DNA of 64,000 nucleotides from GCA_000165345.1 CM000433.1:64001-128000, one strand, 5' to 3'. Positions 29,504 through 29,726 are shown, counted from the stretch's first letter. The notes: generated by a model from the sequence alone, not told the origin. Translations and numbers: made by a program.

Positions 29504-29726
29504 TCAACATTTACAACATTTAGATTCTGTTTCTGTAGGCTTTTCGGAAGTGCATTTATTTTTTTTTGCAAATACATTCAGGTGAACATTTACATTCATC
29601 CTTACAGCATGAGCAACAACAACAGCAGCATTTTCCATTAACATTTTTTTGAGATTCACTTTCGGGGCAAGTTTTAATGCAACACTTGCAATTTGCAGTA
29701 CATTTACATTGTTCACAATTAGTCAT
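29504..29726 (-). CDS. Metallothionein-like Cys/Lys-rich micro-protein (about 56 aa as written; about 74 aa if the A9 run is really A8)
   Basis: ATG at 29726-29724 (minus). MTNCEQCKCTANCKCCIKTCPESESQKNVNGKCCCCCCSCCKDECKCSPECICKKK* gives 19 Cys in 56 residues, with CxC, CC and CxxC spacing. TAA lies at 29558-29556, immediately after an A9 run (T9 on the plus strand, 29559-29567). The +1 frame continues NKCTSEKPTETESKCCKC* to 29504 and is the part captured by ORF-track entry 29504-29716. Confidence 0.55.

Follow-up and report, generated by a model that had tools for sequence, protein, structure and literature searches.

A short minus-strand reading frame, in which a third of the codons are for Cys and which stops directly at a run of nine A residues, raises two questions: whether it is a gene at all and, if so, whether its protein ends at that stop codon or continues into a second Cys-rich segment that is in another frame. 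The frame lies in a 64,000-nucleotide stretch of DNA (GCA_000165345.1 CM000433.1:64001-128000), the whole of which we refer to as the window. The initial annotation proposed a metallothionein-like micro-gene and left three options for its 3' end: an error in the length of the homopolymer in a draft sequence, a gene that ends at 56 residues, or expression that makes use of slippage. We conclude, with a probability of about 0.6, that the locus is a metallothionein-like micro-gene of Cryptosporidium that has been truncated in C. parvum by a real insertion of one A, and that the 56-aa protein is its main product there.

The reading frame and the A9 run

The features under discussion are as follows, all on the minus strand, with positions counted in the window.

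29556..29726, minus strand: conserved Cys-rich core, a 56-codon ORF plus TAA, from the reading of the ORF and its orthologues in eight species.
29559..29567, minus strand: A9 homopolymer (T9 on the plus strand), a C. parvum-specific expansion from A8 to A9 by which TAA is brought in frame.
29504..29560, minus strand: ancestral C-terminal tail, NKCTSEKPTETESKCCKC plus TGA, with 4 Cys, now in the +1 frame.
29415..30113, minus strand: block of non-coding conservation around the ORF, the putative promoter, 5' UTR and 3' UTR of the micro-gene.

Re-reading of the sequence gave the minus-strand ORF as it had first been described, with its 56 codons running from an ATG at 29724-29726 to a TAA at 29556-29558. 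In the product, MTNCEQCKCTANCKCCIKTCPESESQKNVNGKCCCCCCSCCKDECKCSPECICKKK, 19 residues (34%) are Cys, six of them in a CCCCCC run, and 10 are Lys. The TAA abuts the A9 run directly, just past ...CICKKK, and if the run is shortened by one A (A8) or lengthened by two (A11) the ORF is fused to ...NKCTSEKPTETESKCCKC and ends at 29504. The length of the run thus decides between 56 and 73 residues, since A8 joins the tail in frame, as the initial annotation had recognised; its figure of 74 aa for the fused protein is to be corrected to 73 aa (with 23 Cys), as 74 includes the stop codon. The tail with its 4 Cys is outside the reach of standard translation in C. parvum. The mechanical ORF list for the window holds the 56-aa ORF and also a misframed 70-aa ORF with a GTG start (29504-29716), which includes the tail. 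An intron that would excise the frameshift was rejected: the sole GT...AG pair across the run encloses 36 nt, and its removal does not restore the tail frame. A search of Rfam over 28000-31000 gave no known RNA family at the locus.

The base composition gives an expectation of 2.2% Cys codons, and the probability of finding at least 19 in 56 is ~6e-18, so the Cys richness is far beyond chance. Among the 386 stop-to-stop frames of at least 40 codons in the 64-kb window this frame has 31% Cys and the runner-up 15%, and the micro-gene is the only ORF in the window with at least 18% Cys. The 56-aa form has a mass of 6.16 kDa and the 73-aa form 8.05 kDa. Within the 56-aa form there are 7 CC, 5 CxC, 1 CxxC and 3 CKC motifs; it is without Phe, Trp, Tyr or His, and without a signal peptide, a hydrophobic N-terminus or any hydrophobic segment.

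Source of the DNA and neighbouring genes

At 30611-31807 the window encodes a CDC50/LEM3 protein of 398 aa, the sequence of which matches EAK88177.1 of C. parvum Iowa II and CPATCC_002028 of C. parvum ATCC at 100% identity. It is 96-97% identical to the C. hominis protein, 97% to that of C. tyzzeri, 76-79% to that of chipmunk genotype I and 71-72% to that of C. ubiquitum. The DNA had been thought to come from a dictyostelid, and with this neighbour identical to that of Cryptosporidium parvum that attribution falls. The window being C. parvum, the argument that had been built on the absence of metallothioneins from the model dictyostelid does not apply. One further Cryptosporidium genome used below, which we call L001 (Logan DRR848573, contig 954), has a CDC50 protein 91-92% identical to those of C. 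parvum, C. hominis and C. tyzzeri and to POM83924. The G+C content of the window is 22.9%, much lower than the average for the C. parvum genome, which is roughly 30%.

The Cys-rich gene is adjoined by a TMA7 gene (PF09072) of 52 aa at 30233-30391 on the plus strand. TMA7 is uncalled in the NCBI C. parvum chromosome assemblies and in the two annotated C. hominis assemblies, and the exact TMA7 protein carries that name for C. canis only. TMA7 and the Cys-rich gene are divergent, and the DNA between them includes a near-perfect palindrome at 30083-30146, with 31-nt arms that are 94% complementary, a 2-nt gap and the centre GGCGCCAGCGCC. Its core, GGCGC[CT]GGCGCC, is kept in C. tyzzeri, C. hominis and L001, and C. 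parvum alone has the long AT-rich arms. The centre bears what we take to be a resemblance to paired E2F-type GGCGCC boxes, and is possibly a shared bidirectional promoter element.

The other neighbour is a Ser/Thr-rich (mucin-like) gene at ~27231-29136 on the plus strand (L021 6672-8576; L022 6672-8573). It has a single 633-aa product in GCA_031892065.1 and is split into products of 322 and 236 aa in GCA_015245375.1. In the window it is likewise split, into ORFs at 27231-28196 and 28426-29133, with a cluster of N calls at 28126-28168. The assemblies disagree over the frame or the length of the poly-Ser/Thr tract in this gene.

Orthologues and constraint

With the 73-aa version as query two annotated "uncharacterized" proteins were found, both covering 100% of the query: a 72-aa orthologue with 79% identity in chipmunk genotype I, and cubi_01727 of C. 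ubiquitum, with 70 aa and 70% identity. The syntenic interval, from CDC50/TMA7 to the Ser/Thr-rich gene of ~640 aa, was fetched by way of the CDC50 orthologues and has the following content.

C. hominis (three assemblies): syntenic ORF intact, 73 aa.
C. tyzzeri: syntenic ORF intact, 73 aa.
L001 (Logan DRR848573): syntenic ORF intact, 73 aa.
C. canis: syntenic ORF of 54 aa, ending ...CICKKVS; tail absent in every frame.
C. felis: syntenic ORF of 58 aa, ending ...CICRKSCCGNK; tail cut to SCCGNK.
C. xiaoi and C. ryanae: no Cys-rich frame in the syntenic gap.

The synteny check that had been recommended has thus been made, and places orthologues in this same interval in eight Cryptosporidium species, C. 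parvum included. C. xiaoi and C. ryanae may lack the gene at this site, or have it elsewhere or in too diverged a form. By every search that we ran the gene is confined to the intestinal clade that extends from C. felis to C. parvum.

Pairwise dN/dS (Nei-Gojobori) is 0.03-0.25 where dS is unsaturated. In distant species pairs the synonymous sites are saturated, yet nearly all of the Cys columns of the core are retained across the eight species. The locus is a real protein-coding gene, as the initial annotation had proposed, and is conserved in Cryptosporidium. C. hominis, C. tyzzeri, L001, chipmunk genotype I and C. ubiquitum all have the tail in frame and in conserved form. The tail is counted as conserved in six species, in which the terminal ESKCCKC, the stop that follows it and the 4 Cys are invariant and the tail dN/dS is 0.08-0.42, and the further Cys-rich segment that had been noticed beyond the A run is the ancestral C-terminus of the protein. 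The least conserved of the Cys regions is the Cys string, which takes the forms CCCSCC, CCSCCS, C--LCSSCC and C--CCTVCC. Aromatic residues and His are absent from the proteins of C. parvum, C. hominis and C. felis; the C. canis protein has 3 His, those of chipmunk genotype I and C. ubiquitum have some, and L001 and C. tyzzeri carry single substitutions to Tyr or Phe.

Conservation extends beyond the ORF. In a four-species alignment taken in 50-column bins, identical columns make up 78-94% (39-47/50) inside 29415-30113 and 58-86% outside it, and ~390 nt 5' and 90 nt 3' of the ORF match the conservation level of the ORF itself. This pattern fits a small transcription unit, and the transcript boundaries in it are predicted ones. 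There are AATAAA signals at ~29430-29490. A 518-nt ENA contig (L013) spans 29438-29955, stops 12 nt past an AATAAA and carries A9; it might be a transcript.

The 3' flank also has an 8-bp hairpin, TCTTGAAT-TAG-ATTCAAGA (as RNA UCUUGAAU-UAG-AUUCAAGA), at ~29407-29425 on the minus strand, ~80 nt 3' of the tail stop. It is kept in four species, with L001 differing in the loop only, and its folding energy does not differ significantly from that of shuffled sequences (z = -1.2).

The extra A in C. parvum

The species differ at the A run as follows.

C. parvum (nine assemblies): TGC-A9-T-AAA-TGC; broken, TAA in frame.
C. tyzzeri: TGT-A8-T-AAA; intact.
C. hominis (3 assemblies): TGT-A8-C-AAA; intact.
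L001: AAG AAA AAC AAA; intact.

The C. parvum sequences with A9 are the window itself, six from Logan/ENA (DRR729233, SRR5007564, SRR31305056, DRR729245, DRR729256 and ERZ21846244) and the NCBI chromosome assemblies GCA_015245375.1 and GCA_031892065.1. These are nine independent assemblies, including Sanger, Illumina and two chromosome-level assemblies, and A9 is in every C. parvum assembly that we examined. The misframed 70-aa product, which is possible with exactly A9 only, is indexed in 32 sample blocks. JGI metagenomes gave no match to any of the A8 to A10 alleles.

The first of the three options for the 3' end was that a low-quality draft had miscalled the homopolymer as A9 and that the true gene has 73-74 codons. 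The window is indeed of draft quality, with scattered N base calls, for example at 28126-28168 and 29242. However the same A9 is found in 8 other independent assemblies of several accessions as well as in the 32 indexed blocks, and the same kinds of assembly give A8 consistently for C. hominis. The occurrence of A9 at this level marks it as a genuine insertion and not a draft error, and we regard a miscall as extremely improbable. The extra A is a real insertion, gained in the lineage of C. parvum once it had separated from that of C. tyzzeri.

The insertion is recent. C. parvum and C. tyzzeri differ at ~2.7% of CDS sites, and on the C. parvum branch the core has 1-2 synonymous and 0 non-synonymous changes, which are too few for a judgement on whether constraint has continued in C. 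parvum since the frameshift.

The product in C. parvum

The ancestral form, in the group that includes C. parvum, C. hominis and C. ubiquitum, is a protein of ~73 aa, made up of a ~55-aa core and an 18-aa tail that adds 4 Cys. The lineage leading to C. parvum then gained one A in the in-frame run AAAAAAAA-T, which gives a TAA directly after ...CICKKK. With TAA in that position standard decoding in C. parvum is expected to yield a 56-aa protein, in which the whole of the shared core would be kept and the tail alone lost. The 56-aa form keeps all 19 core Cys, and its end is within two residues of the C. canis end and near that of C. felis. Since the C. canis protein, of 54 aa, and the C. felis protein, of 58 aa, end there naturally, a core-only protein is a maintained natural form, and the 56-aa core is most likely the main product in C. 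parvum, where we infer that it is expressed. Of the options that the initial annotation had left, a gene that ends at 56 aa is then the best supported.

The tail is under purifying selection in six species, so its loss may not be neutral, and probably reduces the capacity of the protein rather than being irrelevant. This bears on another interpretation, that the change from A8 to A9 inactivated the gene and that C. parvum has a young pseudogene, with a 56-aa remnant that is unstable, unexpressed or functionless and with decay just starting. The tail that the frameshift strips off is indeed conserved, and under constraint, in the six closest species, the collection has no annotation or protein record for the 56-aa product, and the substitution data are compatible with relaxed constraint. 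But the truncated ORF has all 19 core Cys and zero non-synonymous changes on the C. parvum branch, the block with the putative promoter and UTRs is conserved equally well in C. parvum and its relatives, and the natural 54-aa and 58-aa forms of C. canis and C. felis indicate that the core alone can be maintained and functional. We therefore think inactivation rather unlikely, and treat the truncation as an ordinary change in length between sister species due to a homopolymer indel, which is the plain reading and the one that we adopt.

Possible recoding of the frameshift

A minor full-length fraction could still come from slippage of RNA polymerase on A9 or from a +1 ribosomal shift, and slippage was the last of the three options. 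In its stronger form the proposal is that C. parvum continues to make functionally relevant amounts of the 73-aa protein from the frameshifted gene, and so has two isoforms that differ in Cys number. By one route RNA polymerase II would slip on A9 to give A8 (or A11) transcripts with the product ...CICKKNKCTSEK... (for A8, CICKKNKC). By the other there would be a +1 ribosomal shift at the shifty stop AAA-UAA-A, with the product ...CICKKKKCTSEK... (CICKKKKC).

The sequence has the elements that either route would use. The frameshift is inside the A9 run (29559-29567) and the tail frame is intact to 29504, with 4/4 of the tail Cys kept, and the tail is constrained in the relatives. The site reads AAA AAA AAA UAA A in the 0 frame and the tail ORF is at +1; AAA-UAA-A corresponds exactly to the classical Euplotes motif for a +1 frameshift (PMC5011710). 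In bacteria and endosymbionts there are documented cases in which slippage along a long A/T run repairs a frameshift (PMC5009743; PMC3017870). Further, the per-strand density of A runs of at least 9 is ~10 times lower on the sense strand of long ORFs than outside them (4 A runs in 40.9 kb of long ORFs; 54 A or T runs in 23 kb of non-ORF sequence), a scarcity that fits a cost of such runs in coding sequence.

However an intact tail is to be expected in any case after so recent an insertion (C. tyzzeri differs by only ~2.7% in CDS), and the state of the tail frame in C. parvum is thus uninformative on present use of the tail. The shift site is not conserved: C. parvum alone has the site, and in each of the seven other species the gene is a plain ORF in one frame. 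We know of no peculiarities of termination in Cryptosporidium like those of Euplotes. It is to such peculiarities that efficient shifting at AAA-UAR is tied in Euplotes (PMC5011710). Other long ORFs in the window bear in-frame A9 and A11 runs, which argues that slippage cannot be frequent, and C. canis shows that a protein without the tail is viable. On this balance continued production of relevant amounts of the 73-aa protein is unlikely. The more specific proposal of two-way decoding, with the 56-aa protein made by termination and the 73-aa protein by a +1 shift or Pol II slippage and the two isoforms differing in metal capacity, we consider improbable. If it proved true, Cryptosporidium would have its first described case of recoding, one that would offer a built-in natural reporter for the fidelity of translation and transcription of poly(A) tracks in an AT-rich apicomplexan. 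Unless a recoding reading does prove true, no new principle is involved.

Annotation of the locus

No gene is called at the locus in either of the C. parvum chromosome assemblies, nor in the two C. hominis assemblies that carry annotation, and an exact look-up of the 56-aa product gave no protein record in the collection. The initial annotation was right that the gene is overlooked or misframed, the 70-aa GTG ORF being in the wrong frame. The C. parvum and C. hominis NCBI assemblies that we examined miss micro-genes, both this gene and TMA7, and automatic callers choose the wrong frame.

In C. felis (GCA_014529505.1) there is a 138-aa model with a weak TMA7 match (L016 6564-7342), which covers the whole of the 58-aa Cys-rich ORF (7154-7330) on the opposite strand. 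This model probably merges TMA7 wrongly with sequence that overlaps the Cys-rich gene.

A metallothionein-like protein

The protein is Lys-rich, 54-73 aa in length and with 30-34% Cys, and is predicted to be cytosolic. With regard to function, it would work as a metallothionein, in which the conserved CC, CxC and CxxC motifs would form metal-thiolate clusters with Zn(II) and/or Cu(I). Its putative role is the buffering or storage of metal, or of thiol redox equivalents. The proteins have the features of Kagi's compositional definition of metallothioneins, being below 10 kDa, with 30-34% Cys in conserved motifs, inside the definition's range of about 15-35%, and few or no aromatic residues or His.

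Sequence and structure searches place the protein in no known family. There were 0 matches at E<=10 for the seven orthologues in Pfam (including Metallothio*) and likewise 0 in NCBIfam, and a profile search of PDB was also empty at E<=10. When 1.84 billion protein representatives were searched by profile, the Cryptosporidium cluster alone came back. BLASTP against human MT2A gave E=0.25, which is not significant. The AlphaFold (AF2) model is of low confidence (pLDDT 66.6), and Foldseek of this low-confidence model against PDB gave 0 matches. The comparison with metallothionein families that had been recommended therefore finds relatives within Cryptosporidium only, and the assignment as metallothionein is compositional. 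The description "metallothionein-like" stands for the composition, with its 30-34% Cys and CC/CxC/CxxC motifs, and does not extend to a match in sequence or fold with known families. It is somewhat more probable than not that the protein is a metallothionein-like metal-thiolate binder of a new, genus-restricted family.

The main rival view of function is that the protein does not bind metal, and that its Cys strings (KCCCCCCSCCK) are S-palmitoylation sites of a membrane-anchored protein of the "cysteine-string" type, or else that it is a thiol or redox reservoir. The lack of homology to metallothioneins is in its favour, as is a central run of 6-8 Cys with Lys flanks, which presumably resembles the palmitoylated string of CSP/DnaJC5. 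But the Cys residues span the whole length of the protein, in CxC, CKC and CxxC motifs rather than a single string, the string is the least conserved part, and there is no J-domain or other partner domain. The small size and the absence of aromatics also fit the definition of metallothioneins, and we give the palmitoylated peptide or thiol reservoir only a low probability.

A 2020 survey of GenBank listed predicted metallothioneins in Tetrahymena, Babesia, Plasmodium and Theileria, with Cryptosporidium absent (PMC7216689). In the literature that we searched there is no report of a Cryptosporidium metallothionein, full-text matches being to papers on host metallothioneins only, and the locus tags cubi_01727 and ELE39_002781 are not mentioned in searchable papers. 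A review of apicomplexan metal handling has metallothionein in its reference list only, and the handling of zinc and copper by Cryptosporidium is largely unstudied (PMC7612242). A conserved, genus-restricted Cys-rich protein is a concrete candidate for metal or redox buffering in Cryptosporidium.

The frameshift is also of interest for the comparison of species. The genomes of C. parvum and C. hominis are ~97% identical and differences in gene content are scarce. A frameshift that is fixed in C. parvum samples lengthens the short list of differences from C. hominis and C. tyzzeri, and the A8/A9 indel may be a simple species-diagnostic marker.

Comparison with known systems

The nearest parallel for a ribosomal shift is in Euplotes, where AAA-UAR stops are shifty. 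The C. parvum site AAA-UAA-A is of the same kind, and skipping of the U would lead into the conserved tail frame (PMC5011710). However in Euplotes there are numerous sites, made efficient by the termination behaviour of the lineage, whereas here there is one recent, species-specific indel.

For slippage the parallels are Buchnera/Blochmannia and tssM of Citrobacter. In these, as in the C. parvum gene, the genome is AT-rich and reduced, a frameshift lies in an A run of at least 9, and the frame beyond it is intact. The rescue of such genes by poly(A/T) slippage has been reviewed (PMC5009743), with examples in PMC3017870 and PMC4256274. The difference is that in those cases the polymerase is bacterial and heterogeneity has been shown in cDNA, whereas the C. 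parvum case is known here from DNA.

As a protein, the product resembles metallothioneins broadly, being of 6-8 kDa with 30-34% Cys, rich in Lys, with CC, CxC, CxxC and CKC motifs and no signal peptide. Ciliates and Cryptosporidium are both alveolates, and the metallothioneins of ciliates carry CCC and CKC motifs. The ciliate metallothioneins (Tetrahymena, family 7) are the nearest by taxonomy, but a relationship in sequence to the Cryptosporidium protein is undetectable, and while those of ciliates are long modular repeats, the Cryptosporidium protein is a single short unit.
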